A DNA stretch of 63,978 bases, filler included, from Dimargaris cristalligena (Eukaryota): the NCBI GenBank assembly GCA_003614675.1. It is 4 parts of 4 records of this genome, joined end to end, with 100 filler letters (N's around TTAATTAATTAA, not from the genome) between each part and the next. Parts side by side here need not be neighbours in the genome. Positions count along the whole stretch, not along the records: positions 1 to 16,055 come from ML002861.1; positions 16,156 to 32,208 come from ML002862.1; positions 32,309 to 48,290 come from ML002863.1; positions 48,391 to 63,978 come from ML002877.1. One strand, written 5' to 3'. Both the position numbers and the translations under genes were made by a program. The notes beneath the pieces are model-generated. The model worked only from the letters and a program-made list of their open reading frames with translations, had not been told where the DNA came from and searched no databases. Below, piece by piece: positions 13,807 through 61,882 of the stretch; position 1 is the first letter of the stretch, and each line of letters begins with the position of its first letter.

Positions 13807-15047
13807 TTACATAATTCGCCCGGTGTCTAAAAAGGCCCGGATTTGTTGGAGTTCAATGGGCATGTCGGCTCCGCTAACGATTTCCTTAACGGTCATGTAG
13901 TCAGTCGGGGTATTGGTTGGACTTAGGACTGTGCCTGGGGGTAGACCCAGTTGTGATGGTCGCAATGTGAACATCTCCAAACGCCAAATTTGTGCAGGGT
14001 CCTCGGCTTTGATAAGCGTGGCGAAATCTTGGTAGGCCTGGCGATACGATGATAGCAAGTCTTTGAATTGAATCCGGGGCCACAGGAGTCGAGCCAAAGC
14101 GAAGAATTGGAAGCGAAGGGCCCAGTATAGTCGCTGGAATAGGTTGATGCTGTACTTGACCATTTTAAAGTAATGGTTCTCCAGAAACCGTTCCACTAAT
14201 TCAACTTGGTTAGTTAAAACCGCCATGTTGAACATGTCTTGGGCACAATTGCTCATGGGCAAATTGCAAGGGGGATTGGTTTGGGCCGGACGGGCGTAGC
14301 AACGCGGGGCCAGTTTTTCCAGCCAGAACCAGGCCAACTCTGTCCCCACTTGAGTGTACGTCAAATATGTCAAAAAATGGCGCTTCCTGAAGGAGAGGGA
14401 TGTGACGGCCGGCCGAGCTAGGCTCAGCATGCCGTGGTTCGAAAACTGATCAAAGTCGACTTGGATAAGCGGTACCAGCGAGACGAGAATATCCGGTCGA
14501 AGTGATTTAACCAGGGGCAACATGGCCAACGCTAAATGAGCCACCTGGTCATCTCCATTCTGCAGATGCCGGATAAAATTAACTAGCTGTATATCAGAAA
14601 TAGACATAATGTAATTTGGCCGCAGTTTAGTACCCCCGGTTACTTCATGGGTGGATTCTAGTAACTGCTTAATAATCCCCCCCCTAGATCATCAATGCTA
14701 GCCACGAAGACTTGACTACAGGTATAAAGCGATACTCCTGACGTAGCACTTTATATTGCCCACGGTTTTATTGGGAAAGCACATTTAAAGAACACACTTA
14801 CGGCATTAACCTGGTTCAGCTGCGGGAGTAATTTGAAGTAGATGCCTTTGCATGTACCCTGTAAGTTGTAGAGGTCATCTAGCATCAAATGCTCGGTAAC
14901 GGATAGTATCAATTCGGTGGGTAGGTGATTCAGACAGTTCATTGTCGGTAGCGTAGCTTGGATAGAACTGTCGACCCCCGGGGCTGCTCTCGTCAAAGTG
15001 GGATGACTAGTGGCGAGGAAACTTATTAGCAGGGTTATGACATACAT
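13807..15047 (-). pseudogene. Disrupted secreted F-box / ankyrin-like protein
   Basis: Hydrophobic N-terminus ending TRA-AP, then F-box motif LNHLPTELILSVTEHLMLDDLYNLQGTCK. In-frame TAA at 14751-14753 and a frame change at the C8 run (14677-14684) join it to ORF 13807-14607, which has ankyrin-like helices (FNMAVLTNQVELVERFLE; LYWALRFQFFALARLL). Confidence 0.7.
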
Positions 15048-15780
15048 ACTTGTATCAATAGCTGGGTACCTGGTTCCTTTTAAACTTGGATAAAGAAAAG
15101 TGAATAGAGATTAGGGCGAACTAAAGCAATGCATGGCACTGTGGTAAATCGACAATTTGGCGTTATTATATAGGACTTTGGAGGGGTTGGGCTACTCCGG
15201 CGTTACTACTGGAGTTGGGGCGAGGAATACAGTCGCACAGTCACCTGCCAATTATAAGGACTGCGGGGGGATAGTTAGTCTCTATGCCACCCGAGTCGAA
15301 GGTCAATCTTGCGCATGTAGTGTTCCTTAGCAGAAATTACTTTGCTACCACCCCCCCCGCCAATACATTCTTTATTATTTAATAGGTGTGAAGGCGGCCC
15401 CTGTCTTACCCTTAGGTTGGGAAAAATAGTACAAAAGGTCCCCGTGACTACAGCCAAGGGCCATAAAAGGAATACTTTTGAAGCGGCTTCAGTTCAAGGG
15501 TGTATCATGCATTACCGTGGAAGACCAGGTTGATTGACTAGAAAAGAAGCCACATTCCGGATTGATACATGGAAGCAGCCATTAAAAGACAGGATACCTG
15601 AATAATAGAATTAAAAATTACCGACAATACGGCATTACCTCAGTTTGGACGTATTCACACACCCGGTTTGCGGCTCATCGGGTGACTTAGGTTGTGTGAC
15701 GAAAATCCTTCACTGGTGCAACTATTTAGAGGGAAAATCAAAATTTGGGCCAATATGAGCAGTCATAAAAAACCAAAAAG

Positions 15781-15854
15781 TGATTTCTGCCGGATTCGAA
15801 CCGGCGACCGTCTGTGTGTTAGACAGACGTGATAACCAACTACACCAAGAAATC
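15781..15854 (-). tRNA. tRNA-Val(AAC)
   Basis: GATTTCT/AGAAATC acceptor stem, TGGTGTAGTTGGTTATCAC D-arm, TCTGT-CTAACAC-ACAGA anticodon arm, GCCGG-TTCGAAT-CCGGC T-arm, followed by a TTTTT Pol III terminator. Confidence 0.97.
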
Positions 15855-15867
15855 ACCTACAAAATAT

Positions 15868-15975
15868 TGTGGTAGGACCTGAGAGTACTTAGTTAAACCA
15901 CAGTATTTCTTTATTAATCAGTTCTCATTACTACATCCTTTTATCAGTGAAGTCTCGATTTATTATTTTTACAGC
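15868..15975 (+). mobile_element. LTR-like repeat end, second copy at ~48052-48170
   Basis: Begins TGTGGTAGGACCTGAGA...TAAACCACAGTATT and matches 48052-48170. Runs toward the contig end. Confidence 0.6.
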
Positions 15976-16055
15976 CTTGCAATATCATAGCAAGTAAAAG
16001 ATACATCAAATATCACTCGCATTTATATTTGATATCATCATTAGCCAGATATATT

Positions 16056-16155: not shown

Positions 16156-16255
16156 AGGGGCAGGGGCTCATTCACTCATCAGGGGTGTACTTCCAATAAG
16201 TGCGAAAAATGGATTAAAAATAAAAGTAGGTAAAAAATGTGGTAAGTTCACTACA
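16156..16255 (+). repeat. Dispersed repeat R1, copy of 69-168
   Basis: Near-identical to 69-168. Sits at the contig start. Confidence 0.85.
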
Positions 16256-16278
16256 CCATTCAATCTATATTTCCAAAA

Positions 16279-16873
16279 CATAATACCTTATGGTAGAGAT
16301 TTACTATCACAATAATACTGGTACTGTATTGAACATATATGCTTCTTTGGTCTATGGCCATAACTAGGACTGGTGAGTAGTGTGTTGTTAGGTGAGAGGG
16401 TGAGCTATTTAACTAATCAACTAAACTGGAAAAATTCAGCTGAAGGGAGTTAATATGGATGGCTGGACAAAGTGGTGGTTGGTAAGTGTAAGGGTAAGGG
16501 TAAGGGGAATACTGTATTTGCTTCTGCGGGGTGGTGGTATGAGTTATATATAGTTAGCCAAGACTTAGTTGTCAATGCCAAACTAGCTATATAGTTCAAT
16601 AGATAATGCAAGACATTCAATTTTAGTGAGCAGTAAATATTTATTATGTTTATCTGTCACTGTGATCAAAGCTGTTCTTATGATTGGAAACTAGGTGTTA
16701 TTATCACCTAGTTCCATCAACTGGTCACAGTAATTCAAACACCAAAGGATTATTTTCCTTTGATTATTTTTACCTGCCCATTTGTATATACAATACATCC
16801 CATTATTAATCTTAACTCCATTATTGTTCATCATTGTTTTTTGCATGACCAAATATTTAACTGATTTTGATAC
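16279..16873 (+). repeat. ~590-bp dispersed repeat R2, CpG-decayed copy
   Basis: Aligns along its length with the reverse complement of 28668-29256. Confidence 0.9.
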
Positions 16874-16877
16874 ATAT

Positions 16878-17013
16878 GGGTGAAGTTCATCCAGGCTGTA
16901 TAACAAACCATCCATTAGATGGAGTCAAAATTACTGGTTAGAATATTCAATCCCCCATATTCTCCCATATATGAATTATGTAAAATTTTATACAGCTGGT
17001 TTGAATTTCACCC
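16878..17013. mobile_element. 136-bp MITE, copy 2
   Basis: GGGTGAAGTTCATCCAGGCTGTATA...TATACAGCTGGTTTGAATTTCACCC, with ATAT on both sides. Confidence 0.9.
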
Positions 17014-18836
17014 ATATTAAGATTGCATATATCACTACTGAGAATAAGAGGGCAGCAATATACCCAATCTCTAATTCCTGGAGCATACACACCCTGGTTG
17101 GCACTTTCTGGTGATATGCTCACTGTTTTTCTTTATTTACCAAACCAATATTTTGACTTCAAATTTAGTCAATTCAATTCAAGGAAATATCCTGCCATCC
17201 TGTCGTCCTTCTCTTCATCTTGTAATTGGCCAAATTACAGTCCTTATTGGTTGAATTCGGAGTTTTTGGACTTACTGTGGTTGTGATAGGGTGGGGGTTC
17301 AGTCGTAATTCTTAAGTATGCAAACAAGCCATAGGAATAATACTCAGATGTTTGCTTCACTATATATATATATTCGATTAAAATGAAGGACTCTATTAAA
17401 AATAGAGCCTCAGAGGGGGTGATAACTGAACGATTCAAGTATATCTATTAGTAAAGCCCCCAGAGGCAGGTGGCTTAACAACTGCCTGATGGTAGATTAA
17501 GGGATATGTTGGGGCATAGGAAGAGCCCTATGTTTCCACAACGAACACTATTTCTTTGGATGGGGGAGCTAATGCAAGGCAGCGAGGCCTATCTATTTTC
17601 CGTTCCCTCACATCCTCTCTCTCCCTCTTTCTCCCTCTCTCTTGGGGCTAAACAAAGCAGCGCTGGGCTATGGATTTCCCCTTTTTTATTGACTATGGTC
17701 GGTAGGGTCCTCGATAATCGGACTTTTGGGTCTGTTTCACATTACCTAGAGAAATTTCGGAGAGTGGCTTTAGCCTCATATTAGAGGGGGTTCAACATGT
17801 CCCATCGTCACTTCCCCCTTCTCCTAGCACAATTCTAACAGCACGTTGAATAATATCCCGGGTAAATGAACTCCCCAGGCTTTAGATAATGAGTGGTAAG
17901 GATAAGAGGGCAGAATATAAAGACATCGATTGGGGCGTAAATCATATAGATGTTTTATTTAATTATAAAAACAACGACTTATCAAAGCGCCGTGTAAATC
18001 AGGATTTGCATTTGGTCTTTTAAACTGTTTCTCGTTCCGTCCACCCCCTTTCCTCCCCTTCTATAATCCCATTTTGACTTTACTTCCCTATGACTTCCCG
18101 TCTGCACTCCTTCCCTCTGTCTTCCCTCGCTTAACCGGCGACAGTCACCGTGACCGAACCCCCTTTGGAGGAGTGAAAACTACGAATACTCTCTTACTTA
18201 TCAAAAATGTCATTCTTTATCGTGCACCCACGATCGCTCATCATAGGGCAACTCGATTGTATCGGCACACCACACAGCAGCTCAAGGGTAGGTCTATCTT
18301 ATACGGCGACATACAAAACCAAAACCCAAAGAGAATCGAGCAGCCCGAAACACTACAGTATTCATTAGAACAAAGGGTGCAGTACGCCGTTAGCTACGAA
18401 ACAAGTTGGTTATGGGACTAGAGGCGCAGGTTTGGGGGTAAAAGGTTGGGGTTGAAAATGTCTGCCACTGTGGCTATCATGATTAATTTATTGGCGGCTC
18501 GTAGCCGTCTGCTGATCAATTTCACCCTATCCATCTCCGCCATCTCTATCATATCATATATACCCTCCTGCACATATTGCTTGGTGACTGTTTAATTCGG
18601 GCATTGGTGTGAATTATTCCGCTTTAGTAATTCCATATAAATATCCCATCCGTCGGCCTGTGTAGGAGAGTATATCATTGCATTCCACATCCTCCTATTT
18701 TACATTGACCCTCCATCCACTCCTTACTTCTATAAGTTCTCTCCACTATCACCGGTAAGCTTTACACTAGGAATTTATCGTTTACGGTCTTTTCGGACCA
18801 CTTGGTATAGCCAAGTAATTGGTTTAGGAGGTATAT

Positions 18837-18972
18837 GGGAGAAGTTCATTCAGGCTGTATAACGAAAAATCCATTGGATGAGGCCAATATTGCTGGTTAA
18901 AAGCTATTCTCCCACATATTCACCCATACATGTACTATGTAAAACCCTATACAGCTGGTTTGAATTTCACCC
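18837..18972. mobile_element. 136-bp MITE, copy 3, inserted upstream of the secreted-protein gene
   Basis: Same TIRs with ATAT duplication. The empty site is visible upstream of the paralog at ~31295-31325. Confidence 0.92.
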
Positions 18973-19111
18973 ATATTAATTTTTGTTCATCAGACGAACT
19001 TTATATGCTAAATATCTTCTTCCATTCAATTCTGAACCTGCCAACGATATGTAGTGAGTTTTTGGCCATCTACTTTCCCCCTTCCTTATCCCCACACCAA
19101 CCCCTGCTACC

Positions 19112-19471
19112 ATGCACGCCTTCCAATCCTTCCGTATTTCCCGTCGAGTTCTGTGCATCGCTCTCGGCAGCTTGGCTCTCCTTGTTTTGACCACGCAACC
19201 GGCCATCGCGGCCCCCCACCATGTGCATAGCGTCACCGAGTCCAACTTCGTCCACCTGAGCCGTCGGGCCAAACAAAAAAACAATATGGGTACTAATATG
19301 GTCAGCAAGAATGTCAACAGGAACAGTGGGTCCGGGAAGAAGGTGATCCCATTGGGCACGAAACCAAAAGCCATAAAGCCACGTGAACCCAAGGAAGCCT
19401 TTAAGAATTACAATAGTAAACCAGCAAAGGCCGATGGGTCCATGACGGATAAAAATGGGCCCATTGAATAA
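19112..19471 (+). CDS. Small secreted Lys/Asn-rich protein with prepro leader (119 aa)
   Basis: Signal-peptide-like MHAFQSFRISRRVLCIALGSLALLVLTTQPAIA-AP and pro-region ending HLSRR. Leader and 5' flank are conserved with the paralog at 31168. Confidence 0.75.
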   Translation: MHAFQSFRISRRVLCIALGSLALLVLTTQPAIAAPHHVHSVTESNFVHLSRRAKQKNNMGTNMVSKNVNRNSGSGKKVIPLGTKPKAIKPREPKEAFKNYNSKPAKADGSMTDKNGPIE

Positions 19472-21181
19472 CCACCAGATTCGCCCACTTCGACTAAATA
19501 TCTTGATCTTCGGTTAGTGAGACCGGTTTCACTAGCTAAAATACGATACCGCCCACGTTATCGTTGTCTTTTCATCCCAAACCAATTTTTCGCTCTGTTG
19601 AAATTCATCCAAATCCAACGCTGCATTGCCTACGCATTTTTTGGCCAAGCCATCCGCCATACTGTTGCCGGCCACCTTCGCTTAACTCAGTCGGTTGTAA
19701 CTCCTTTCGAATCATTTAACATAAAATTATTGGCGCAATTCAGCGGTCAAACAGCACCAGTCAATAAAATAACAGGCATTTATCATTTATCACTGATCAC
19801 TGTCAAATGAATATAAGATATTTTCGTCAATATAACGGTGCCTATTAATAATACTGTGAAGGTTGGTCTAATTATAGTGCAATATAGGTCCTGCTGTGCT
19901 GCATGTAAGCAAGTATATAATTTCATGTAGTACCAGGGCTTGGGGTTACGGGAGGGGATTCGGTGTGGTCCTACCGGGTGGAGAAGAACCGGACATGGGC
20001 GGGGTGCTTAGGATAAGGCATCGCTTCCTAGTGGATATAGGCCGCACAATTGGGGTTGATGACGATGTTGAAGAGTGTTATCTCCTTTGGAAAGATAGAA
20101 CGGTGACGAGCTATTCGTGACATTATGATATTTGACAAATACTAATGCTATTTATAAAAGAAATCTTAAATATACTTATAAGTAAATAATTGTAGTAAAT
20201 ATAATGATTGACACAGACGGGAAATCGAACTCATAATCATAATCATACTCGCGCTCACGCTCCCCGAATTAGGTATAAGAACGGCAGGTTTAAATTTATC
20301 GTGCATCAGAAATGGCCATAATAGCACTGGAGGTGCTCATCGGTCACCAGCGAAGAATTTTTTGTTGGAAATTCATTTCCCCTGTCCCACCGATTCTATC
20401 TCTCTGATTAGCTCGTCCTAAACTCGGGACTGTATTCTAGCCATTACTATATCATTCTATACTCGGGACTTCGTCCCAATCTTGATTATTACTATTATGT
20501 AACTCAATAAAATTAACCGCGGGCATCTAGCTCTGCTCCTTGCGGTTCTTTCTCTCATATTAAAATTATTTTAGTTGTATCCGAAGGCACTTGTGTTTAC
20601 CGTCGAATTTATCAATCCACCATTTTTATCATCGACAGCCTCTGTTTGCCGTTATCGGACTTTGATATCTGTGACTACTTTCTACCCACGGTTTCAGAAG
20701 TGGTGATTGACACTTTCGCTGGGCTGATAATAACGCTTCCGTCGAAACAACAGGTGTAATTATGGAAATAATCGTACGCGATAACATCGGCAAAAAATAG
20801 ACACTCTCCAACCCTGCGCTTTGCAGTAATACAAATCACCAACTAAACCCACACCCATTACATCAGCACAACCACAAGCTCACACTTTATCAAAGGTATT
20901 AGTTGTCCAACCAGTTCAGCATATGTAAATATAGATATCATTTAATTATAATCAGCAGCGTCTCCTTTTATCACAGTTTTCACGTTGTATAAATACCAGC
21001 AGCTTCTGCGTCCATCTGGGCCTAACAACCTGCTTCTTATTCTTAGGTTCCTGTTAATTATTTATATTTTCCCCTGATTATTCATACCTTCGCTAAATAT
21101 TTCTACGCTTGGTAGCAGTATTACATTCCCTAATTTGAATGGCTTCTATATATACGTATCTCCCCCCTTTATTCCACCAGC

Positions 21182-22087
21182 ATGGATCCCCTTGCTGATC
21201 ATTCCAGGCCAATTGATGAACATATCCCCATTGTGGGAAACCCTGTAACTGAGACTGTAGTGGCTATAGCCTCCACCGTGTCCCAGCGGCCCTTCCAGGC
21301 AATAACCGGATATGGCACTCCTCCCCGTTTTCAAGGAACTTTTTGAGACGACCCATTGGCCTGGCTCCGGCGTATGGAGTTATTCTGTGAAGTCCGCGAT
21401 ATTCCCAATTCCCACTGGGCGACCTTTGCCTCTGAATCCTTAGATGGCCTGGCTGCTACCTGGTTTTGTCGTACCCTATCGGATGAAGCCCAATCCCACC
21501 CTAACCTTACTCTTATGCAATTACCTATTATGGCCTGGTCTGCTTTCAAGCAGTCTATTACTATCCAATTTTTAAACAAAGACTTGAGTCTCGCTCTTCG
21601 AAACCAATTAGGCCAATTGCGCCAAGGCAACTCCTCGTCCAACTATATTTCCAAATTTAACAACTTGGTTCTATGTATTCCCGGTATGCATACCAGTGAT
21701 CAGCTGAAGTATTTCTTAGATGGGTTGCATCCTTCCCTACGCCAGGACTTACTAGTTGCGGGTGTTACCCACTTGACTGCCTTGACCGAAGCCCTGATAA
21801 AGGCCCTGGATTTGGGGAATTCCTCTCCGTTTACGGCCCGATTTTCCAGCCAGCATAATCGGCCTTTTCACAACCGGCCCCTGAATCCCCAACCTAGGTC
21901 CCCGGTACACTAAACAAACCTGGCATCTATGGAACTAGACTGGCGTCAAACCTTGACCCTCCGAGAGCGTCGACAGTGCCAGGCCCAAGGCACCTGCTTC
22001 CGCTGCCGCCAAGGGCGACATCTGGCCCGACATTGTTCTGGATTTCCCATCAGCGAATTGCTCTGCGACCCCCTCCTTCCCCGCTAG
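21182..22087 (+). mobile_element. Decayed Ty3/gypsy gag (two in-frame stops, no pol visible)
   Basis: One frame from ATG 21182 reads PPRFQGTF*DDPLAWLRRMELF...WSAFKQ...LRQG...YISKF...FLDGL...*...MELD...CFRCRQGRHLARHC (capsid motifs plus CCHC knuckle). PBS-like TGGTAGCAG at ~21110. Confidence 0.88.
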
Positions 22088-22896
22088 CCTCACCCTCCTA
22101 ATTTATTAACACCAATTTTAGTTACTAAGTTCTTTTCTAAAAAAACTCCAGAAAGAAATGTATATAACCGAAAACCCTCAAAGATAATCTAGTGATTTTA
22201 TTGCTGCGACTATTCCAACCCAATCTGTGTACCGCAAAACCACTCTTCCTTTTCAATCCTAGCATTCTGATGCTGGTGCCTACTAGCTGTTTAATTCAAT
22301 TGATTTTATATTTTGGGGATACTCTTGAAATCCCTCAATACCCTGGCCATCCCGAAATAAACCCCCATATTCTCCCATAGCGCACCTGCGACCATAATGC
22401 CATGCCCGTATAGTGTTGAATATTATGATTAAATTGACTGAATTAACCAACCAGGATATATCCACCCAGAATTATGACCAACTGACAAGTCCAATAGCCC
22501 CTCTGTTCTTCATAACCCTCACCGAAAACACTCAACTAAGTGGTCAGTCGTATAATAATGATAAGGGCCAGATAATCTGCCCGTTTATTTTATTTATATC
22601 GATATGTATGCATGAAGATTTGTATATCATTAAAATTCGGACACCGCCCGTTGGCTATATTAGGTTAGTGACAGTAAAATCGGCTGCAGTTGATAAAGCC
22701 CACACAGAACGCAAAGCGCAATGAGAATCCACGACAGCCGACCTGCCGAGGCCCCCCACCCGCACTCCATTCCGCCATGTATTAAGACCCCACTCGTATA
22801 CCGCCCAGGCGACCGAAAACAGCGCGTTGGAGTAGGCGGGCAGCGGAACGGAGGAGACCGTTAACCATGACTGCCGGGGTAGTCCCGGAGGGGTGC

Positions 22897-28325: not shown

Positions 28326-28357
28326 GATTTTCTCTAAACTCTTATATCGTCACACAT

Positions 28358-30599: not shown

Positions 30600-31168
30600 T
30601 AAATGGTTTTAATGCAAGTTGCAACCCACTGAGCTGAGGATAGATGATGGGTACTGCTATAGTTAGTGGCTTGACAGTTAGAAGAATGTTTGGGTAAAGT
30701 TGTGCTAGATTTGTATATTTTGCAAGAGAGCTATGTAGGCTGTTGGAATAAACAGTAAATAGTGAAAGGGGCAGTGTCCATGATTTTAACCAGTAAAATT
30801 GGTCTAACCAGCCAAAGATCTTGTTAATGAGCTGAAGTAGGTGCCACTTTATCACCCACAGATCCCACTTTTTAATTCAAATACTTGATTTTGACCTCCA
30901 GCATTGGTTAATGGCTTTCTTTTATAGACTGAATGTATTTTTCTGCCATAAATGGGAGTTCCTTAATAGCCCCTACTAACTTCGACCCAAACTCTTTCAC
31001 TTTTTCTAAACTCTGGTATTGTAGGTGTAGAGTGTGGCTCTCAGTGAGACCATCCACATGGTGGGGAGCTGTGGTAACTGACTGTGAGGTCAGCACTAGG
31101 AGGGCCAGGCTGCCAAGGGTGACATACAGAACTCAGTGGGGCATGCTAAAGGATTGAATGGCATGCAT
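30600..31168 (-). pseudogene. Pseudogenised paralog of the 19112 secreted protein with a different C-terminus (3' boundary approximate)
   Basis: MHAIQSFSMPH*VLYVTLGSLALLVLTSQSVTTAPHHVDGLTESHTLHLQYQ aligns codon for codon with the 19112 leader. TGA replaces CGA, and further in-frame TAA/TAG stops follow. Confidence 0.85.
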
Positions 31169-48170: not shown

Positions 48171-48180
48171 CTTTTTAGAT

Positions 48181-49911: not shown

Positions 49912-51619
49912 GCGGGAAGGGTTAGGGTATTGTTAGAATAAGAGCAGCCAGGAATAACACTATCGGGCCAGGTGCTGACCGAGTGTGGAAAGAGACAGGC
50001 AGAAGGGATACGCGGGGGTAGACGAACTATAATTAACGAAGAGGTTCATTGAATCCCAATACTAAAGACGTAGATAGTGCCACATGAGTGAGTCCAGTGG
50101 ACAGGCTGTGGAATGGACTATTTATACTAGTTTCAAGGCATCTGAATAGAGGAAGTGGGTGGGGAAGGCGGCGTAGAACAATAGTGGGGATCGACTGGTA
50201 AGCTTTGGTTACGCATTTCCGTTTCAGTCGAAGAAACGAAGTGCCCGTTCGTGACGCAGACGCAACCGTACAACCACCGCACTCCCCTCGGATGGCAGTT
50301 GCCGCTGCTTATGCACCGATGGAGGCCATTGCCTTTCCTGGCCTAACGCCACTGTGGAGGCTGTTATATTAATGACCCCTCCCATGGACTTCGGCTGGGT
50401 AGAGGAGAGGAGAGTACCCTAGATCATACCCCTTTCACCACCTGCCACCCAGAGCAGGGGAAAAGCCACTCCTCTAACTAACGAGGGAGGGGAGAGGGAT
50501 ACTATATTCCCAGCCCTTGTTGCAGCAAGTGTATTAATGTCGTCTCGCCTGGTTGAGCTGCCGCTACCAATTGTTCTATATGAGGAAAGGACTCATGACT
50601 AGGTCTCGGCTAGACTGTTGACGTAGGCAGAGGTGTTACAGGTTAATTCCGAAGTGGGCCGATGCGGCGGGAGCTGGTGGTCAGGGGCAGTCAGGACGGC
50701 GTACCAAATGCAGACTATATCCCTTAATCGACATTGAGTACAGAGAAGTCGCGGCGTATCACAGCTAATATCGGAAGTAGGTGGGGTACTATTATGCCTT
50801 GTAATCAGCCGACCTTTCACACAGTTTGAGTCATTTAACCATACCGGCCATTCGCGATACGGGCTGACCGGTGCTATGTGAACCGATTGAACAGGTCTGC
50901 ATCCAACTAACCTCCACTTCGGCCAATGTTTAAGCCTCCTCTGTACCCTGGCCACCCTGGGCAAATTGAACTATTAGATAGAGGTAGCCCTGTGGGACTG
51001 GCAGGTGATTTTTCAAGTGGCATACTGGATTATGGAAACATCTGATTAATGTAGCTAGACTGATTTAGGGGAAGTTTAGTGTCCTCCGGCTTCAATAGTC
51101 ACCGCGCTATAAAACCAAACCGGCCTGTATGACGTGACTTAGCCTGTTCTGAGCATAGAATTGGGGACAGGTAGCAATATAGCATAGCATACTTCGGTGA
51201 ATTCGGGGGTAGATGCGGCAGGATGTCTAGGCCACACTATACCTAACGCATTTATTGGAATGGAACCCCGAGTCACTTTTTAAAAATAAACGGCCAATAA
51301 GGTACTGACTTGAGGGTTAAAAGAATTATAAGAGCCGAAAATGTCTGTGTAATGTCATTGAAAATAAATAAAAAAACTGAAGCAAATGTCCGATTTCATT
51401 TGAAGAAGTAGAAGAAGAAAATGTTAACGTAAAGAGTTAGGAATTCATGGTCCACGAGGGAAAATAAGATGAACGAGAATAAAGGAAAGTGGTTAGAGGG
51501 GTCTAGGGCTAATAATATATTACTCCATTTGGATAAGCCGCGGTTGCATATACAGTAGACCCCCAGAGTGAGGTGAGGACGCATTCATGGTTGGATATTT
51601 TAAAAACCCCCTTCATAGC

Positions 51620-52618
51620 TTAGCCCCGGCCACACGGACCAGCTGCAAGGTGCTGGATGGCCGCTTCAACGACTTTGGCCGGGGCGGTCGTGAAAAACGT
51701 GGCGGGGTAGAACTCGGTGCCCCAGTGAGGGTGCACCAGTACATTGCAGCAGTTGGTGGTCAGAACTTGGTAACGGAGCAGGTATTGGCAGCCGGCCACA
51801 TCGGAGTAATAGCCCGGGCCGCGGGGGGAGAACACGGGGTAGCCCGAGCAAGGGTCGGTGAAGTCCGCCCAGTACTCGTCGCCCATACTCCGGATACGGT
51901 CACGGAGCGCATATGCCCAGTGCATGAACTGGTGGAAATAAGAAGACCAACATAGCGTTGGAGGAATTGGGATATTTGTAATGGTGGGAGAGTGAGTGAC
52001 AAGGTGGGAATATAGCTAGGTACTGGAGGGAAGTGGGAGGAGCAGTTTATCGATGAGTGGTTTGGCAGTGAAATATTTACGGAGGTGACTTACATTGATG
52101 AGTTTCTGGTCTTTCTCGGCCTCCACATCGGCCCCTACAGCCACCAGGGACCCACAGGTGGGCTGGAAGGTCGGGATAACCAATACCGGGTTGCTCTCAC
52201 CGGTATGGGGATCGGCAGCTGTTCCATTGACGGACTTGGGTTTTCCGACCGAGGTGGACGCCGGACGAAGGTGAGGGAAGGTCAAGTACAGTTCCCTCAG
52301 AAAGCGGGACGAGCAGGTGTGAATGGAGTACTCGAGCGGAAAGGCGGGGGGAGGAGCGGGTAGCCCGCAGGTCTGCGGTAGCTGGATCCCCCAGGGGTGG
52401 TTTTGGAGTACCGCCGCGGCCGCCGCGGGCAGGGTGCGAGTTGCACTGGGTACCCGGAAAGTCAGGGTTTGGGGGGCTTGTAGTTGATTCCGTGGGAGAC
52501 GAGTGGTTTGGGACGGCTTAGTCGAACCACAAGGGCCTAGCGAGGCGGTGGGGCTATTACTGCTACCCTTGGGCAAGCTACGGGTGCTCCACGAGCAGGA
52601 TTCGGCGGCAACTGTCAT
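51620..52618 (-). CDS. MMADHC: Cobalamin trafficking protein CblD (exons 52094-52618, 51620-51928)
   Basis: EYSIHTC...LTFP, EAEKD, YWADFTDPCSG, CCNVLVHPHWGT..YPATFFTTAP motifs. GT-AG intron in phase. Confidence 0.9.
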
Positions 52619-53668
52619 GCTGAACCAAAAGAATACGCTATAAGACGAGGAGGGGGTGTGGTCAGGACCAGATATAAATCTGGGTTAAATGACAAGGCTA
52701 AAAGGACCAATTGGCGAGAGGGAGATGGAAATGTGGGTGAGACATGAGGAGCTAATTGGAACAAATGGAATGGCACGAATTCGAAGATAGGTGAACAGGG
52801 AATATTCGTTGCGTTATAAATTAATCTAACAGGATTTGATCGATTAGATATCGGTTGATGATTGGTGCCAATGGCACAGGATTGACGCATGCATAAAATA
52901 CAATACAATAAAATAAAATAAATGCGCAAAAAAATATCATGATTATTGTTGTTAGTATTTAGATCACGGCTCTTTCAAGATGAGATGATTCATCTATACC
53001 AACTGATTCGCTCAGCCGGCTGCTGTAGGGGATGTGGTATTGGTTTTACATTTTCACCTTTGAGACCAGAAACCCGCCTCAGCTGTGCCATGTTGGTTGA
53101 TGATACCCCCTACCACACACACTCTCTCTCTTTTCGTCATTCGAGGATGGGCCGTAATTAGCGCCAGGGGACGACGACTATCCTATAATTGAGAAGAATA
53201 CATAACATATAGCGCACCTCCCTTATAAGTGCATTATTCGGCTTGACTGCTGCTAACCTGGCCAGCGGAGTTTGAATGCTGTGACTATTCTAAAGGCACT
53301 GCCCTAGATAAGAAAGATGTATACTATATATACCCTTCGTACGTTTACCCTGCTCGCATTTTGCCCGATATTTTTAGATTATTTAGTGACTGTCTTTTAT
53401 ATTCTAACCCCGCAGGTTGCCAACGGTGCTTTCTTGGGAATACATCGGTCGGTAGCCGGTTTACTATGGCCGAGGCAGCCCCTTGCGGCATATAATGAGG
53501 ATGTTAAAGGCAATGTGTATTATCGAGACGGGAATAAAAATATTACAAAAGTGAATGGGAGGGGTGTCAAGATGGGTTTAGTCTGGAGTGGGTTTAAGAG
53601 GCTAGCATCCAGTCACCCAACACCAACTAAGCTCTATCCATCACCGGATATCGGGGGCCCCCCGCGGT

Positions 53669-54334
53669 TTAGAGCGACTTGCCCATAAACTTGCGCTTCT
53701 GAAAGCAGAGCCACCACTTGCTGGGGGTACCGTCGACATACACCCGTTCAACCAGGCGCTGGCCCAGTTCCTGGCGGATCTGGGTCAGGTACTGCCGAAG
53801 CAGATCGGTGTCGAATTTGCTCTCCGGGGTCGGGTAGAGGGAATAGAGGGGGAACGAGGTATCGCCGGGGATCGAGAAATTGGAAACGGCCAGGGTGTAC
53901 AGGGCCTTGGTGGCCTCGGCCTGCGACGTGTGGCGATTCAACTTGGTCAGGCATTCGGAAATGTACAGAATGAGGTAAATCAGCAGGCGGTCGCCGGGGC
54001 CCTTAATTTCAAAGTTGCGGAAGAGGCAGTTGGCGCGGAACAGGTCCAGGGCCTCATCGACGGCATCTTCCACGGACGGCTCGGCTGGGGGGTCAAGGAG
54101 AGACGCCCAAAGGTATATGCATTATACAAGAGGGGCTGGTTGTTAAGAGCTGGGTAGCGGGAACTGGTGCCTACTATGACCTGGGCTAGGTCAGTCAGAG
54201 ATGGCCAAGTGAGGAGGTGCTGGTTTACCTTGCGGGGCAGGGCCCTTGGCTTTGGTTTTGAGAGGGACCAGAGGAATGCCGCCGATGACGCGGTGGTCCG
54301 TAAGGGAGTTGTATGCTGAATGGTAGGCCGGCAT
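53669..54334 (-). CDS. ARPC3: Arp2/3 complex 21-kDa subunit (exons 54229-54334, 53669-54084)
   Basis: MPAYHS...GPAP...DEALDLFRANCLFRNFEIKGPGDRLLIY...PSKWWLCFQKRKFMGKSL. Confidence 0.97.
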
Positions 54335-54877
54335 GGTATTAAGGGAAGAGGGGTTATTAGTCCTAAACAGAGTGGATGGGGTGGATGAAACGGCGAAGTA
54401 GAAGGTGAAGTTGAGTTTAAGGAATTCAGATGGGGAGAGAGGCTACTAATAGAATAGGCCCGCACTGGGGGCTTGGCTGTATTCTCGTTTTAGCACTCCT
54501 CCCGCTGCCAAGAGAATCCAGCCGTTCCAAGTCCAGTCATTGACTCTCTAGTAGAGGGGGGGAGGTACTGTAGCTATTATCTATCTACTAATTATTACAT
54601 ACTTGCGTATGTGTGTTCGTTTGTATTGTGTACCCCTTCAACCCACCCACCACTAGTACCTTTTACTTGGCCCTACCTTCCCGTGGGAGGCCCTATGAAG
54701 TCGAAGCTCCATTTCCAGTTGTCGGTTGGTGGATTAATGGGGTGTGTTTTCTTGAATACCATCTCCGATAGGCTCTGGGGTGCGCCATGGCTGGTGACTA
54801 ACCTTGGAAGTGCCACAGAAAAAAAGAGACGCTGTACATAACACTGTCGATATGATGAGGGCTATCCAGCATTGTCT

Positions 54878-54928
54878 CTACCTACCTACCTACCTACCTA
54901 CCTACCTACCTACCTACCTACCTACCTA
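54878..54928. repeat. (CTAC)n microsatellite in the ARPC3/TYR1 divergent intergenic region
   Basis: About 12-13 perfect CTAC units. Confidence 0.95.
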
Positions 54929-55106
54929 TACAGGCAGCGGAAAGACCAAGTAAGTCGTGTGGTGGGTGAGTCAAGTGCGCTGCAAGGCACAGTCCCCTCG
55001 CCTGCCCTACCCGCTCATGAACTGAACCCTAAGGTCTGTTTGTTGCTGCCTCTTTCGTTTCTTATCCTCATACCTTATAGCTGTTACTATAGCCACAAGC
55101 CCCACC

Positions 55107-58100
55107 ATGGCCGAATCCCGCCCACCCGTCACCGGCGAGGCCCTCGCCAAGCTCAAGTCCACCTTCGAAATCGGCCTGATTGGGGCCGGTGAAATGGGTC
55201 TCCTCTACGCTCGGCAGCTTCGCGACGCCGGCTGGCAAAGGTACGTAGCTCGTCCAGTCCAGTTCAGGGTTTATCCGCTCGACCCACCAGAGTTCATTCC
55301 GGAAGTGTTGGGTGTTAGTTAGGGTAGTGGTGCCGTATGGGTGGTCTATTCATGCTATAAAAAGAAGCTGCTTAAAAGAATATCCCCTCGTTAACTTTTT
55401 TTTTACACGGACTCCCATTTCCCCCTGGATTTATATGGCTGGACGACTGCTGTTTATAAACCACAATAATAGAGTCAACATTTGCGATTTACCTTCTAAA
55501 TATAACGAACTCCGCAACAAACTTGCAGGTATGTATACCCCCCTCTTTACTGTGGGAAGGCTCATACATAATATAACCCATGGTGTTTATAAACCATTAA
55601 AACCTCGGCTCTTTGAACCTATGTTTATTTTCTTGTGCGAGATTGCCGCCAACCTTGGTGTTAACCATACCGGGCAATCCTATTTTGCATATGTTTTATT
55701 TAATTTGATGTGATTTCGTGTCACAGGGCAGGGTATCAATGTGCTTCCGGACGGCTATGCCGTGTCGCGACTCAGCGACTACATTATTTACTCCGTCGAA
55801 GCCGCCAATCTGCCCCGGGTCGTGGCTGAATATGGTAGAGGTAAGTCGTTCTGGCGAAACCAACCCCCTCCCCCACTCCTTCTCATGCATGGCAGATTAG
55901 CTAATGGTTTTAACAGCATTATCCGCCACATAACTGGGGCACATGCCAATTATACTAGCTAGACCTTCTGCGAACCATGGTCACTCATTCTAATTGTATT
56001 ACATTATTTTATAATTGACCCCCTCTAGCCTCAAAATGCGGTGCCATTGTAGGAGGACAGGTAAAATCCCCCACCTTTTCCATCTAACCTATTCAACAGC
56101 TTCACTGCATAATCCCCGCATTGTTGAATTATTTTACTAACATCCCACGCTTCCCTTAAATACGCGTCTTCACCCTGATACCCCACTTTCCCCCCAATCA
56201 CCACCAGACATCGGTCAAGACGCCCGAAATTGACGCTTTTGAGAAATACTTGCCATCGGATGTCCAAATTGTCACTATGCACTCACTACATGGGCCCAAC
56301 ATCAGTACACAGGGTCAGCCATTGGTAAGTTAAACTCAGTCCACAGGGGTGCTTTCACATACCCTCCCCACCACTTTATGATATTTAAATCACTACATTT
56401 TTAACCAGCTGTTTTAATTTACATCGACATGTCCCGGGGCTTTAGGTGGTTATTCGGCATCGCTGTGGTAACGAGGCCTACGACAGAGCCCATGCTGTTC
56501 TGCAATCGCTCGGTGCCAATATGGTCTATTTGACCTACGAGGAACACGATAGGTAGGCCCGGCTATGGCCTGTTGAACCAATCCCATTTAAAAGCGAAGG
56601 TAGCCAGCTTAGCTATCCCGTCCCGCTTTTACGAACCAATACCATATTTTTTATACTTACTTTACTATCGTCATGGTACCTTTTTTAGAATCACCGCGGA
56701 TACCCAAGCGGTCACACATTTGGCATTTATCAGGTAGGACCTTCGCCTTTATTTATATAAGGCAAATGCCCAAAACAAGAATACACTACAAATTATGACT
56801 TCGGATTAACCCACCTCTATCCAAATCGACCCTAATTCTAACCAAGCAATGTTCGGGAGACTGCCTTGTTTTGGCAAACTATATTATTTAACCCTCGTTT
56901 TTAGCATGGGCACGGCGTGGATGACCCAGAAGGTCTACCCAGTAAGTTTTTTAAAAGTCCAATATGGATATATTAGACGGTAGACGGGATCGGAGGAGTA
57001 GCCAGTGTATAAACAAATAGTAATCAATTCGTTTTTGATTCAACGTATATAAGGCATTGCTGATTTTTCTTGAAACTAATTACTCAAATCATTAATTGCA
57101 TATCCAACCTATATTCACATATGTTTTTTTACATTGAAAGTGGGAAAACCGAACCTACATCGGTGGCCTGGAGAATGTCAAAGTAAACATGGCAATGCGA
57201 ATCTATGGCAGCAAATGGCATGTTTACGCGGGTAAGTGATCATTAATTTTGTAAAAATGCTCTAAACCCGGACTACAATACTCCTAATACGTATGCACAA
57301 CCATCGTAACGCATTATGTGTAACTCGTATAAGATCCTTTTTGACCTATGCCTCTGTAAATACCATTTATATTTATACCCACGTGCCGGGTTGGTTGTGT
57401 TAGGTCTCGCCATCTTAAACCCGTTTGCGAAGGCACAAATCAATCAATACGTTCAATCGGTTGTCGAGCTTTACAAAATGATGATCTTGGGCCACAAGGA
57501 CGCTTTCCGGCGCCGGATTCATGAGGTAAACTATCGATCCCTTAATCCATTCAGGCGGCCTGTAATATGAAGGGGGGGGGATCTCACAAGCTCCAGGGAA
57601 ATTAATATGCCTTTGGCCAATTACGCGATATTTTATAACGCTGGTATTCACTCAAACTGGTCTTCATTGTTTTTCTTTTATAATATCCACTATTGTCTCT
57701 ATCACCATAGGCCCGCGAGTTTGTATTCGGCGGCCCTAGCAAGGATCGAAGCCCCATCCTCTTGAACGATCAGATCATGGACAAATTTTCCCTGGGCAAT
57801 ATTCCCAAACAAGCCCGTAAACCCAATTCACATCTGTCCTTGTTAGCTATGGTAAGGGCCAATTTTCTATTATTCAAATACTGAATCTGGCCTTGGCCAC
57901 ACTTGGTTGTCAAACAGGCCAGTTGGTTATTTTATTTGTTATCATGGGATCCACCGTTGCTGCTTTAGACTCGGTGGTTTTTACTATATCCCCTATTTGG
58001 CTTCATTCTGAACCCTCCCCTCTACTTTATTGTATACATGGATTTGATTTGCTATCCAACGCTTCCCCCAATACCAGGTGGACTGCTGGCATAAAATGGG

Positions 58101-58649
58101 AATCAACCCCTTCGACCATCTTATTTGCCAAACACCCCCGTTCCGCCTCTGGCTGGGGATTGTCGAATTTTGTTTCCGAAACTCGGAGATTCTGGAGGAA
58201 TCCATCGAAACGGCTATTAATGACAAGGAAGTCCATGCCGAGGACCTTTCGGTAAGTCATGCCCACATTGGACAATGCTACATATACTCCACTCACTCAT
58301 TCCTAAGGGGCTTTGTCTAAATAGGTTCTCGTGGGAGTATGGCAAAACTGCTGGCCAATTTGTACTAACGTTTTTTTCGGATATATATATATATATATTA
58401 TTGTCTATTTAAATATGGTACCATCTTTTTACTGACTGGATTCCTTGATCCGGCCACCCTACTACCTTGTAGTTCTTTTCCATGACCCAAGGCTGGGCCC
58501 AGTGTATTCAATCGGGATCTTTTGTGGGCTACCAACTGCGGTTTCAAGAAACGGCCCAGTTTTTTGAGTCGCGCTTAGATGAAGCCAAGGTGAACAGTAC
58601 GGAGATGATTAAACTCATCACTCAGAAAACCCAATCCAGAAATCTCTGA
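55107..58649 (+). CDS. TYR1: Prephenate dehydrogenase (13 exons)
   Basis: IGLIGAGEMG Rossmann motif, SDYIIYSVEA, VGGQTSVK, HSLHGP, EEHDRITADTQAVTH, KWHVYAGLAILNP, KPNSHLSLLAMVDCW, HLICQTPPFRLW, spread across 12 GT-AG introns. Confidence 0.93.
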
Positions 58650-59108
58650 TTTTATTAAGGACACGGCTTTTCTTTTTAACATGACGGGGTAGGCCCTAAT
58701 CAGATATAATGCTATGGCATTACCTATTGGTTTCCCATCCATCCCTTTTCGAAGTATTACGTAGTGGCCCATGATCGCTTTTTATTTTTTTATTTTGAAG
58801 TTTTTAGTTGAGATTAACAGATTGATAATTCGTAGGCGTATTAATGAAGTTCTTTTTGATTGCTAAAAAACTGTGTAGAAGTGAATCGGTGGCCCTTGGT
58901 GAGCTAAAAAGTGGACTTGTTTGCCGGCATGTTCCTTGTTTGGCATGGTAGGTTTCCAAAGTAAAAATATGAACTAGGCTGCTACATTTCTGTGTTGTTG
59001 AACACCTGGGCACAAACCGACCTGAACCTATACCAGCTTGCAGTCCGAGTCGATACCATCGCGAAGTTGCTGAAGCGGCCAACGTTGTTTTCAGTCTAAT
59101 TAGGCTAT

Positions 59109-59795
59109 TTACAAGCGGCCAGCGACATTTCCTTGGCTAGAGATACCGAGTCTGTTTTTCGGATAAGGACTTGTTACTACCCGGCTACGCCGTGGGGTGA
59201 ATCGGCATGCGGGCCGCGCTACAACGGGGCCAATCTCGCCCTCAACCTTAACCTGGGAGGTATCGGCGTTAGCGAAGCCTTCTACGCAGCTTTCTCCGCG
59301 ACCATCCATGCTACGCGCGACAGGCGATTCTCTGCCAAAGATCCCGAGGTGGTCTTCCTGGTAAGGGTTGGTTACTGCTTGACCACACCACGGGGCAAAT
59401 CGACATGCGGGTCGCTCTACAAGGGGACCATTCCTACCTTCAATTTTAACCTTTGCGATGTCAGCATTAGCGTCACTGAAATACTTTTCGTCATTTTCTG
59501 CCCATTCGAAGGGTTTGCGATCGATGTACGACTTTGCTTGGCAAGCAGCTCCTCCCGGGTGCATTGCCTGGTAAGCGTGGGCTGTTACTTGGTCATACAG
59601 TGGTGCGAATTGGCAAGTGGGTCGCCATAAAATGGGGTCATCTTCGCCTTCAATTTTGATATTCGGGAGATTGAAATCGCGTTTTTCGTCACCAATATTG
59701 GACCGGTGGGTGAGTTCACCTATGGCCAGGGCATCTAGTCCCGTGAAATATCCCAGTATGGTTAGAAGGGCTAAACAAAGACTCACTTTAGACAT
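59109..59795 (-). CDS. Secreted orphan protein with three internal repeats (228 aa)
   Basis: Signal-peptide-like MSKVSLCLALLTILGYFTGLDA, EKR site, and three repeats of (I/V)K(I/V)EG..GP...RP(A/T)C.F.P...VT.PY. Intronless. Confidence 0.75.
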   Translation of the reverse strand: MSKVSLCLALLTILGYFTGLDALAIGELTHRSNIGDEKRDFNLPNIKIEGEDDPILWRPTCQFAPLYDQVTAHAYQAMHPGGAACQAKSYIDRKPFEWAENDEKYFSDANADIAKVKIEGRNGPLVERPACRFAPWCGQAVTNPYQEDHLGIFGRESPVARSMDGRGESCVEGFANADTSQVKVEGEIGPVVARPACRFTPRRSRVVTSPYPKNRLGISSQGNVAGRL

Positions 59796-60940
59796 TAGGA
59801 AATAACCAATAGATGATATAAGGGTATATCAGCGTATAGAAGGGGTATTGGCAAATGGAATGATCACCTTGATTAAAATTGAGGCCAAAACAGCAAGTAG
59901 AAAAGGTGCTGGGGTGTTGGATAAGATCGAGAAAGAGAGAGGATAGAGAGAGCTCATATGGAAAGGAGTCCACTATATACTTGCTCCTAAATACACCTGG
60001 GTTTAGTTGAGTAAGGGCTGGGATTCCAAGGGACATATCCATCCAGCCTTCCCTATACACCCCCCTTCCAAGAACATAGCAAATTCGTTGAGCATGGCCT
60101 AAGAGTCCCCTCCATTCACTATAGATGGGGGAGGAGGGATGTAAATGTGTGGCTGACGGTGCGGGAGGAATTGGGTGTACAGGGTAAATGTAACCTTCTA
60201 TAGTTGCCGTATTGCCCCCCCCCCCAAGGTACCTCGAGAATAAATGTGGACTGATGACGGCCGCACGCTGAGGCCATTAACGAGACGGGGGGAGGGTAAT
60301 GATATTACATTAAGGAAAGATTGGTCGACCCAACTCACACTGTCTGTGTCACTTGATCAAACTCAGAGGGGCGCCATCGTTCCGCTGTTTTGAAACCAAT
60401 TTTCTAGGCATCTGTGCCATTGCTTATACCGGAATGATATATAATCGAGGGTCTATTAGGTGACACTGTGGCGCATAAGGATAGTCTGGGCATCGTTTGG
60501 TTATTCCCATAATTTATTTAGTAAAGGTCTATTTGAATAAAATAACAGGCATGTTCATATTTCAAATTCAGCATTTTTCAACCGAGATTCATCCTACTTG
60601 TTATATTTATCGGCCCATCGGAGCATATCAAGCGGATAACTGTCACGAGGGCATTGGTTGGAGTAGATGAAAAAGGACTTTCGTTGGATTTCCCCATTCC
60701 AAGTCCATTTGCCACACCTGGCCATTTCCCACCACTAACCCCGATTCATTATTAAAGCCAAGATTGGTGGTGATATTTGGACTGGTTGATCAGTCGCTCT
60801 AAATAAGTGTCCATAAAAAGACCTCTCTTTTTAATGGGGATGAAATCGGGCCAAGTGAAAGCTCATAGTATGTACATAAATCAAACGGATATACCTTTAG
60901 CTAAGGATCTCTATAGAAACTGATTAAATCCCGACACTCC

Positions 60941-61882
60941 TCAAATATTGGGCATGATTATAAATTTTGCATTAGGCTCCATATCCGCCCCTTGGCAATC
61001 CGGTCGATGCAATGCTAGCTTGCACTTACTGAGAAAGACCTGCATACAACGCTTACACGAGGTATTGGTTTCGCCGAAACGATGGAACCGATGCTGTTTC
61101 AATAATGACGGGGATTTAAATGTCTTTTGGCAGTCGGCACAAATGGACTTGGAAGTTTTGCAGCCGTTTTGGGTGTGGCGCGTATAATCACTGGTTCGGT
61201 GAAACTGGCGGGGACAATCGGGGCATGTTTTGAAGAAACTGCACTGCCCCGGCTTGGTTTGGTGATTCTGAAGGGTGGGAGCGTTGGCCAAGGACTTTTC
61301 GCATTTGGGACAGGTGACGCGTTGGTAGGGATTCTCCGAGTTTAGCGGCCCGGTGGGGGAGGCCGAGGGACGTCGAATGAAGGGTCGGATGGCTCGGCGG
61401 TTCGGGTAGGGTTCGGTGACTTGGGGCGCACCAGTGGCTAACCGACCCTCGCCGTCCGGTCGGGATTTACCCCCTTCCAGTTGGGAATTGGTGGTATGTT
61501 GTTCCGGGCCAGCGTCGCTGTCATCCGCCATGGAGCAGGCGAGTACTGGGCCATCGATAACGTCGTCGCTGTCGGCGCTCTCACAGCTATACTCGGGCCC
61601 CCAATATAGACTACCGCTGGATGACGATGGAACAAGGCCCACCGGAAGTTCCCCTGCGTCGGCGTCGGTATTGCAGGGGTATACGCTGGAGGGGTATTCA
61701 AGAGAACTTGCGGCCATGGTGGGGTCGCTAGAGCCATTCAAATCATGCACGAGGAAGCTGACGGCCATGCGGTCTTCCTTATTAGTGACCCCCGTGGGGA
61801 GTTGTTGTGTAGGACGGGCCTGTAGCTCCCAAAAATGTTCCAGAAGAACGAGACCAGCTGCCAAAAGGGAATATTTATGCAT
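60941..61882 (-). CDS. Signal-peptide-bearing protein with four C2H2/C2HC zinc fingers (313 aa)
   Basis: MHKYSLLAAGLVLLEHFWELQA-RP leader, acidic Ser-rich middle, basic patch RRAIRPFIRRP. Fingers CPKC..H..C, CPDC..H..C, CADC..H..H, CKRC..H..C. Confidence 0.8.
   Translation of the reverse strand: MHKYSLLAAGLVLLEHFWELQARPTQQLPTGVTNKEDRMAVSFLVHDLNGSSDPTMAASSLEYPSSVYPCNTDADAGELPVGLVPSSSSGSLYWGPEYSCESADSDDVIDGPVLACSMADDSDAGPEQHTTNSQLEGGKSRPDGEGRLATGAPQVTEPYPNRRAIRPFIRRPSASPTGPLNSENPYQRVTCPKCEKSLANAPTLQNHQTKPGQCSFFKTCPDCPRQFHRTSDYTRHTQNGCKTSKSICADCQKTFKSPSLLKQHRFHRFGETNTSCKRCMQVFLSKCKLALHRPDCQGADMEPNAKFIIMPNI

Follow-up and report, generated by a model that had tools for sequence, protein, structure and literature searches.

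The stretch of DNA analysed here, hereafter the window, comprises 63,978 nucleotides (nt), filler included, of the Dimargaris cristalligena assembly GCA_003614675.1 and consists of four pieces joined by N spacers (positions 1-16055, 16156-32208, 32309-48290 and 48391-63978). D. cristalligena is an obligate mycoparasite of the order Dimargaritales (Kickxellomycotina, Zoopagomycota), according to the main texts of two publications (PMC9866270, PMC6784888). Pieces 1, 2 and 4 carry five loci which a preliminary description of this DNA had grouped as secreted orphan proteins with intracellular regulatory modules and had taken for a single effector system of a parasite, aimed at the ubiquitin, SUMO and transcription machinery of its host. 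All five lie where that description placed them, locus 3 as a decayed copy starting at 31168 on the minus strand, and its guess of a haustorial mycoparasite is right for D. cristalligena, an early-diverging fungus. Our analysis suggests another reading of the loci themselves: on balance, they are probably a mixed bag of young, species-restricted D. cristalligena genes and not one system.

Gene anatomy of the five loci

Locus 1 is a split gene (Table 1). ATG-to-stop open reading frames (ORFs) are present at 14751-15047 and 13807-14607 on the minus strand; the second, which is delimited at 13807-14688 in a wider count, is in another frame than the first, and the NCBI model P0002 (306 amino acids (aa), 98% identical) joins the two across the 215-nt intron. 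The loci had been described as intronless, which is correct for locus 5 but not for locus 1. The start codon of P0002 is the second in-frame ATG (14942), so that the model lacks the 35-residue leader of the long ORF, and this ATG lies only three to six residues ahead of the F-box motif LPTELIL. Residues 36-82 of the long ORF are identical to P0002, whereas exon 2 differs from it at 5 of 259 residues. The leader itself has no basic n-region.

The hallmark of the F-box is an L-P-x-E-[IL]-[IL] start of helix 1 with later conserved hydrophobic positions, and locus 1 agrees with this consensus in its LPTELIL stretch and in the further hydrophobic positions that can be read after it. Profile scores fall short of the Pfam cut-offs: PF12937 (F-box-like) reaches 22.4 bits (E 1e-4, residues 39-68) on the long exon 1 and 20.5 bits (E 4e-4) on P0002 against a cut-off of 24.3, covering only profile positions 1-30 of 47, and PF00646 (F-box) reaches 14.5 bits against 20.5. 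The F-box match is real-looking, although below the Pfam cut-off. The ankyrin-like helices reported behind it survive as a look-alike lead only. No Pfam family, ankyrin included, matches the C-terminal part at E up to 10, whether it is searched whole or as four sub-segments, and P0002 has no sequence match in the PDB at E up to 10. The single-sequence AlphaFold2 (AF2) model of P0002, with a predicted local distance difference test score (pLDDT) of 39.2, is too poor to use. An Atlas feature search, which finds language-model look-alikes, returned ankyrin clusters at 0.96 (174 of 256 features in common) and, at 0.92, a single cluster that combines F-box and Ank_4; the recognition value of the protein is 2063, and below 2300 a high score counts as weak evidence. 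The C-terminal domain may possibly consist of degenerate ankyrin repeats, which we take as a lead only. In the protein search with exon 2, the conspecific protein was the sole match, 1 among 1590 candidates, and a metagenome scan with P0002 gave 57 pattern matches, of which none was confirmed.

A tRNA gene (15781-15854, minus strand; Rfam RF00005, 65.4 bits) lies about 730 nt upstream of locus 1 and is the only match of the Rfam scan. It is adjoined by a repeat at 15863-15969, which matches 48047-48161 and whose bin has a very high summed contig depth in both sequencing runs (18,461 versus about 182 in neighbouring bins in run X5). Ty3-type elements insert beside tRNA genes.

Table 1. Features of the five loci and the main repeats in the window
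Feature	Position	Strand	Content or basis
Locus 1, exon 1	14802..15047	-	ORF from ATG 15047; 35-codon hydrophobic leader, then F-box motif
Locus 1, intron (215 nt, GTAAGT...CAG)	14587..14801	-	P0002 junction QVNA/LVNF mapped on the window
Locus 1, exon 2	13807..14586	-	All-helical C-terminal domain, no known family; ORF and comparison with P0002
Upstream region of locus 2, duplicated along with it	18404..19111	+	Matches 31169-32011 on the other strand
Locus 2	19112..19471	+	119-aa ORF; 33-aa leader, then 86-aa Lys-rich, Cys-free tail
Locus 3, decayed inverted paralogue of locus 2	30760..31168	-	Alignment, translation, inverted repeats
Locus 4	59109..59795	-	228-aa ORF; canonical leader, three repeats of about 42 aa, 6 mature Cys
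Locus 5	60941..61882	-	313-aa ORF; leader of about 22 aa, acidic Ser-rich region to about residue 180, four fingers at about 188-297
Copies of the ~150-nt repeat	5055-5196, 16874-17020, 18825-18979, 27678-27817, 28356-28505, 63921-63973		Sequence comparison
Piece-end repeats	69-168/16156-16255; 308-390/32105-32188; 32324-32433/48176-48285		84-92% identity

Loci 2 and 3 form an inverted pair, 11.5 kb apart on one piece. The ORF of locus 2 corresponds to an annotated 119-aa NCBI protein, P0003 (99% identity, the one difference being I32T). Its leader has a basic n-region, a 14-residue hydrophobic core and the residues A-I-A ahead of the predicted cut, and the mature part contains 13 Lys and 4 Arg per 86 residues and no Cys, so that the Lys-rich tail of the preliminary description is borne out. 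No Pfam family matches locus 2, and the conspecific copy was the only match in its protein search (1 among 6 candidates). Locus 3 is interrupted by a TGA at codon 12 and by three further stops within the 136 codons read. The copy takes in about 700 nt of upstream DNA; blastn aligns 18972-19240 with 31306-31040 at 70%, while similarity between the two ORFs fades past about codon 50, with no alignment beyond. Over the first 50 codons, the Nei-Gojobori ratio of non-synonymous to synonymous differences per site (pN/pS) is 0.34 in the ORF frame, versus 0.53, 0.64, 0.68, 1.86 and 2.82 in the other five frames, in a small sample of 49 codons. The ratio is lowest in the ORF frame, and the leader stretch of loci 2 and 3 has therefore evolved as coding sequence in that frame. 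This comparison argues that locus 2 is a true gene whose leader is genuine and conserved while its mature part changes fast, as is common among secreted protein families.

Opposite locus 2, and overlapping it, runs a second ORF of 132 aa (18976-19374, minus strand) whose start is strongly hydrophobic; the frame comparison favours the plus-strand frame of locus 2 as the coding one. One copy (18825-18979) of a dispersed repeat some 150 nt long interrupts the duplicated upstream region and adjoins locus 2, abutting the conserved part of that region. On piece 1, positions 899-1176 are an 80% identical copy of the region upstream of locus 3 (31343-31624), with no leader-type ORF next to them. Between the inverted loci 2 and 3 sits a remnant of a Ty3-type retrotransposon gag gene (21347-21913, plus strand; PF03732, E 1.9e-10; PF19259, E 9.7e-8). 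Together with the repeats, this remnant agrees with the transposon debris that had been reported beside the first three loci.

In locus 4, the leader consists of MSK, a 14-residue hydrophobic core and the residues A-L-A ahead of a predicted cut at residue 24; loci 2 and 4 have the most textbook leader layouts of the set. The Cys of the mature part of locus 4, six in all, are even in number. The repeat units of locus 4 occupy residues 41-82, 111-152 and 177-218 and keep the core K-[IV]-E-G...R-P-x-C-[QR]-F-x-P. Units 2 and 3 are alike at 23 of 42 residues, and their 42 codons include 13 synonymous and 19 non-synonymous differences. Each of the three units contains one [IV]K[IV]E motif, as noted earlier under the name of SUMO-consensus repeats. 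The motifs were copied along with the repeat and hence represent one independent event of a 4-residue motif, so that their number has little meaning and can carry hardly any weight. The single-sequence AF2 model has a mean pLDDT of 33.8, its only confident element being a helix at residues 3-18 (pLDDT 76-80). Locus 4 has no Pfam family and no PDB sequence match at E up to 10, its best Atlas score is 0.77 (a lead only, recognition 1299) and points to no relative, and a metagenome scan gave 201 pattern matches with none confirmed. The protein search returned one match among 154 candidates, namely the conspecific fused model P0001.

P0001 (H4R33_003293, 399 aa) takes its residues 1-284 from locus 5 and continues, after a gap of about 1.2 kb, into locus 4. 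It enters locus 4 from residue 21, just behind the predicted cut region of the leader, and ends off-frame after the second VKIE motif, with one residue difference from locus 4 in 100 aligned and one from locus 5 in 284. We considered loci 5 and 4 as one gene, as this join implies, and rejected that model as an artefact because the implied intron of about 1.2 kb is far longer than those mapped here (215 nt in locus 1). P0001 is thus probably a mis-joined gene model, to judge from intron length.

Locus 5 is the zinc-finger gene. Its leader consists of MHK and an 11-residue hydrophobic core, with Leu at position -3 of the predicted cut, and a second in-frame ATG is found at codon 39. The zinc fingers noted earlier stand: PF00096 matches three stretches with 33.1 bits against a cut-off of 25.2, and by this profile evidence, with which the Cys/His spacing agrees, the C2H2 fingers are real. 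Direct reading of the sequence suggests a single classical C2H2 finger and three of C2HC-like type. A HMMER search with locus 5 returned 2251 library proteins at E <= 1e-3. In the 149 matches listed besides P0001, the best stretches all fall within residues 115-307 (about 30% identity), indicating that only the finger region has relatives and that the acidic, Ser-rich N-terminal half is an orphan.

Leader-like starts and links between the loci

A classical eukaryotic signal peptide combines an n-region with a core of some 7-15 hydrophobic, uncharged residues and a cut site that has small residues at -3 and -1. Leaders were scored with a crude, self-written rule. It requires an uncharged 8-residue window with a mean Kyte-Doolittle hydropathy of at least 2.0 that starts within the first 18 residues, followed by a small-residue -3/-1 site 1-13 residues past the end of the hydrophobic window. 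All four intact ORFs (loci 1, 2, 4 and 5) satisfy this rule, in keeping with the signal-peptide-like leaders first described for them, but so do many other sequences. The rule fires on 10 of the 51 ATG-initiated ORFs of at least 80 aa in any frame of the window, on 21 of the 131 ORFs of at least 50 aa, on 12.9% of the ORFs of at least 80 aa in 20 shuffles of the window pieces and on 7 of the 149 C2H2 proteins, unrelated and predicted, that were listed in the library search with locus 5. Its false-positive rate is 5-20%. Since the rule often fires by chance, a leader-like start alone is weak evidence.

The loci have little in common beyond this feature. In an all-against-all blastp comparison of the four products, cross-matches appear only at E >= 0.6 (database of five sequences). 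Words common to the 400-nt upstream regions of the five loci are no more numerous than shuffled sequences allow: seven 7-mers are in common (shuffle mean 3.2, maximum 10), one 8-mer (mean 0.26, maximum 4) and no 9-mer. The loci are spread over three separate pieces, and only loci 4 and 5 are neighbours. Three protein searches, with loci 1, 2 and 4, each returned one near-identical conspecific NCBI protein (locus tags H4R33_) and nothing else, and no paralogue was found except the dead locus 3. Database searches likewise found no relatives outside the species for loci 1, 2 and 4 or for the N-terminal half of locus 5. The orphan status claimed earlier thus holds, all loci being lineage-restricted; the single effector system is not supported, as no common sequence or upstream motif and no expanded family were found in our searches and the pieces are separate. 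The preliminary description had itself named non-expanded architectures as a result that would speak against a system. With no family expansion found, the evidence so far leans in that direction, and a coherent translocated-effector system against ubiquitin, SUMO and transcription is not supported.

From these features we infer the start sites, the secretion of loci 2 and 4 and the site of action of loci 1 and 5 as follows. The products of loci 2 and 4 would be secreted by the classical route, with co-translational entry into the endoplasmic reticulum and subsequent cleavage of the leader. They can plausibly be regarded as ordinary small secreted proteins and would then be candidates for a role of interface or effector type in the parasite. 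Locus 3 is a dead duplicate of locus 2. Locus 1 would encode a cytosolic F-box protein of the ordinary kind, serving as substrate adaptor of the SCF (Skp1-cullin-F-box) ubiquitin ligase that belongs to the fungus itself, translated from the second ATG at 14942, and the hydrophobic stretch upstream would be 5' leader sequence that is open in frame by chance. Locus 5 would be a lineage-specific C2H2 zinc-finger protein working in the fungus's own nucleus, its hydrophobic N-terminus being due to chance or bypassed by a start at codon 39. The F-box and zinc-finger genes are, in other words, more likely to encode normal intracellular proteins.

Competing explanations

Several points weigh against this assignment of loci 1 and 5. 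The leader rule is crude and is not a trained predictor such as SignalP. In locus 1, no stop separates the first ATG from the F-box, with which it is in frame; position -3 of this ATG is A, and a TATA-like run lies some 120 nt further upstream, at 15163-15172. The mRNA may therefore well contain the long form, and the NCBI start is a gene predictor's choice, not an experimental one. We nevertheless consider secretion of the locus 1 product unlikely, because the prior for secreted F-box proteins is low and the chance rate of leader-like extensions has to be weighed in. For locus 5, the points against a purely intracellular protein are also those that would make it a secreted nuclear effector of the type of MoHTR1 and MoHTR2 of Magnaporthe oryzae, where secreted C2H2 proteins are proven effectors according to the main text of PMC7672089, with MoHTR3 as a further precedent (PMC10189765). 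Such a protein would be released at the haustorial interface and enter the Mucorales host, where its fingers would bind host DNA and thereby reprogramme transcription; loci 2 and 4 would be co-secreted and locus 1 would remain intracellular. The leader of locus 5 has 22 residues laid out as n/h/c, and its core of 11 residues is not long enough to anchor the protein in a membrane. P0001 keeps the leader-bearing start, and the first ATG has the better context, with A at -3 where the ATG at codon 39 has C. The fingers are genuine. The acidic N-terminal half is species-restricted and the gene is intronless, which fits an effector-like gene. Locus 5 also lies 1.1 kb upstream of locus 4, the best secreted candidate, on the same strand. 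This explanation has to contend with the 7 of 149 unrelated C2H2 proteins that satisfy the leader rule, from which a few cases per fungal proteome are expected without secretion. It also has to contend with the weak fit of Leu at -3 of the predicted cut, with the alternative start at codon 39 and with the absence of a paralogue family in our searches. Given this base rate and the Magnaporthe precedent, we hold secretion of the locus 5 product to be rather unlikely, though well conceivable, and we regard the MoHTR-type explanation as tentative at best.

The preliminary description went further, with all four intact genes secreted via haustoria and hijacking host SCF ubiquitin ligases, SUMOylation and transcription. 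In its favour are the organism, which is a haustorial mycoparasite, and the four ORFs, which all satisfy the crude leader rule. The long ORF of locus 1 has no stop between ATG 15047 and the end of the F-box, and its look-alikes suggest an architecture of F-box plus ankyrin repeats. Secreted F-box mimics are known from other organisms (Hessian fly SSGP-71 and Ralstonia RipG/GALA; main text of PMC4617103). The conspecific differences, 5 of 259 residues in exon 2 of locus 1 versus 1 of 284 in locus 5, could also reflect fast evolution. These have to be set against products that share no motif, sequence or promoter word, a family that is not expanded in the searches and an annotated homologue of locus 1, P0002, without the leader. 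The F-box match lies below the Pfam cut-off with no Pfam ankyrin match beside it, and chance alone often produces a leader-like start. The [IV]K[IV]E motif is a 4-residue one copied with the repeat, with about 0.4 chance matches per such protein by a rough estimate from typical residue frequencies. We therefore regard this full reading as very improbable, and the same applies to the narrower proposal that D. cristalligena sends proteins with intracellular modules (locus 5, perhaps the long form of locus 1) into its Mucorales host via the secretory route and the haustorium, to which we give very little credence.

At the other extreme, loci 2 and 4 might be non-functional, as chance or decaying ORFs in repeat-rich DNA that are called genes merely because they are open. 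Neither has a relative outside the species or a Pfam family. Locus 2 overlaps the 132-aa ORF on the opposite strand, adjoins a dispersed repeat and has a dead gene as its sole paralogue, and locus 4 was not annotated separately by NCBI but spliced onto locus 5, and has neither a confident AF2 fold beyond the leader nor an Atlas recognition above the low value of 1299. We find this quite unlikely, since the pN/pS of the leader in loci 2 and 3 is lowest in the ORF frame (0.34) and the repeats of locus 4 keep their Cys and Pro positions, with 13 synonymous differences among the 32 changed codons of units 2 and 3. An ORF of 228 codons is also long against the shuffled background, in which about 21 ORFs of at least 80 aa occur per shuffle of the whole window versus 51 in the real sequence. 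Finally, both ORFs are intact in conspecific proteins, with 1 difference in 119 residues for locus 2 and 1 in 100 aligned for locus 4. A mixed set of young genes, in which loci 2 and 4 are functional and probably secreted while loci 1 and 5 act inside the fungus, is the reading to which we return.

Known systems and repeats in the window

The closest parallel to locus 5 is found in Magnaporthe oryzae. The main text of PMC7672089 describes twenty predicted secreted proteins with DNA-binding domains, half of them C2H2, of which MoHTR1 and MoHTR2 were shown in rice nuclei. Like MoHTR1-3, locus 5 has a secretion-like N-terminal leader followed by C2H2-type fingers and is species-specific, with no wider family. 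For the MoHTR proteins, secretion, entry into the rice nucleus and DNA binding have been demonstrated, whereas locus 5 is known from sequence alone. It further differs in having four fingers and in that its host would be a fungus and not a plant, and the two are compared by description only.

Locus 1 resembles F-box mimics in its N-terminal F-box-type motif and in a helical domain that perhaps consists of repeats, to which the long ORF adds a leader. Legionella AnkB is an F-box plus ankyrin protein. Other secreted or injected mimics are SSGP-71 of the Hessian fly, an F-box plus leucine-rich repeat protein, and RipG/GALA of Ralstonia (main text of PMC4617103). The SSGP-71 and RipG families are expanded and bind host Skp1, whereas locus 1 is single-copy in our search, its F-box lies below the cut-off and its annotation has no leader. 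If translated from the second ATG, locus 1 has a domain content like that of ordinary SCF adaptors, and locus 5, started at codon 39 or with an inert N-terminus, like that of C2H2 transcription factors. Both differ from ordinary F-box and C2H2 proteins in the in-frame hydrophobic N-terminal extension and in a remainder without a recognisable orthologue.

Loci 2 and 4 are short, carry a leader, have no known domain and are lineage-restricted, much like the species-specific small secreted proteins in which zygomycete genomes (Zoopagomycota and Mucoromycota) are reported to be rich, irrespective of trophic mode (main text of PMC9391592, in which the name Dimargaris does not occur). Arbuscular mycorrhizal fungi provide another parallel, in the form of characterised secreted nuclear effectors, the SP7 family and others among them, as described in the literature. 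These are proteins of early-diverging fungi that act in host nuclei, and some are built from repeats like locus 4, which they resemble by description only; they belong to another phylum and have plant hosts. The author of the preliminary description was aware of no such system that had been characterised in early-diverging fungi. In view of the mycorrhizal effectors, this holds only in part. For Zoopagomycota mycoparasites no characterised effector was found in the literature searched, PMC9866270 and PMC9391592 among it, and words beginning with secret or effector are absent from the main text of the paper on the first Dimargaris genome (PMC6784888). Given this, effector work on this biotrophy of fungus on fungus could make its start with loci 2, 4 and 5 as candidates. 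The one that deserves most interest is locus 5, which might be a secreted zinc-finger protein like the MoHTR proteins, here in a fungus that parasitises fungi. The set is weak evidence for a system of a new kind, consisting of unrelated orphans picked by a feature that is frequent by chance, and both eye-catching architectures, the secreted C2H2 and the secreted F-box protein, have precedents elsewhere. Should locus 5, and perhaps locus 1, be delivered into the host after all, effectors that are translocated into host cells and act in the nucleus or mimic ubiquitin ligases would be described for the first time in Zoopagomycota and in a biotrophy between fungi.

In sequencing run X5, one contig spans 5167-15810 with 54 differing letters and 4 gaps relative to the window. 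The dispersed repeat family of about 150 nt, which may be a MITE, a SINE or an LTR fragment, is represented by at least six copies in the window (70-94% identity), and the bin with the copy at 5055-5196 has a summed depth of 8,191 versus about 182 in its neighbours in the same run. Repeats of very high copy number seem to make up the ends of the pieces (Table 1), the first 536 bases of the window having a summed depth of about 208,000 in run X5.

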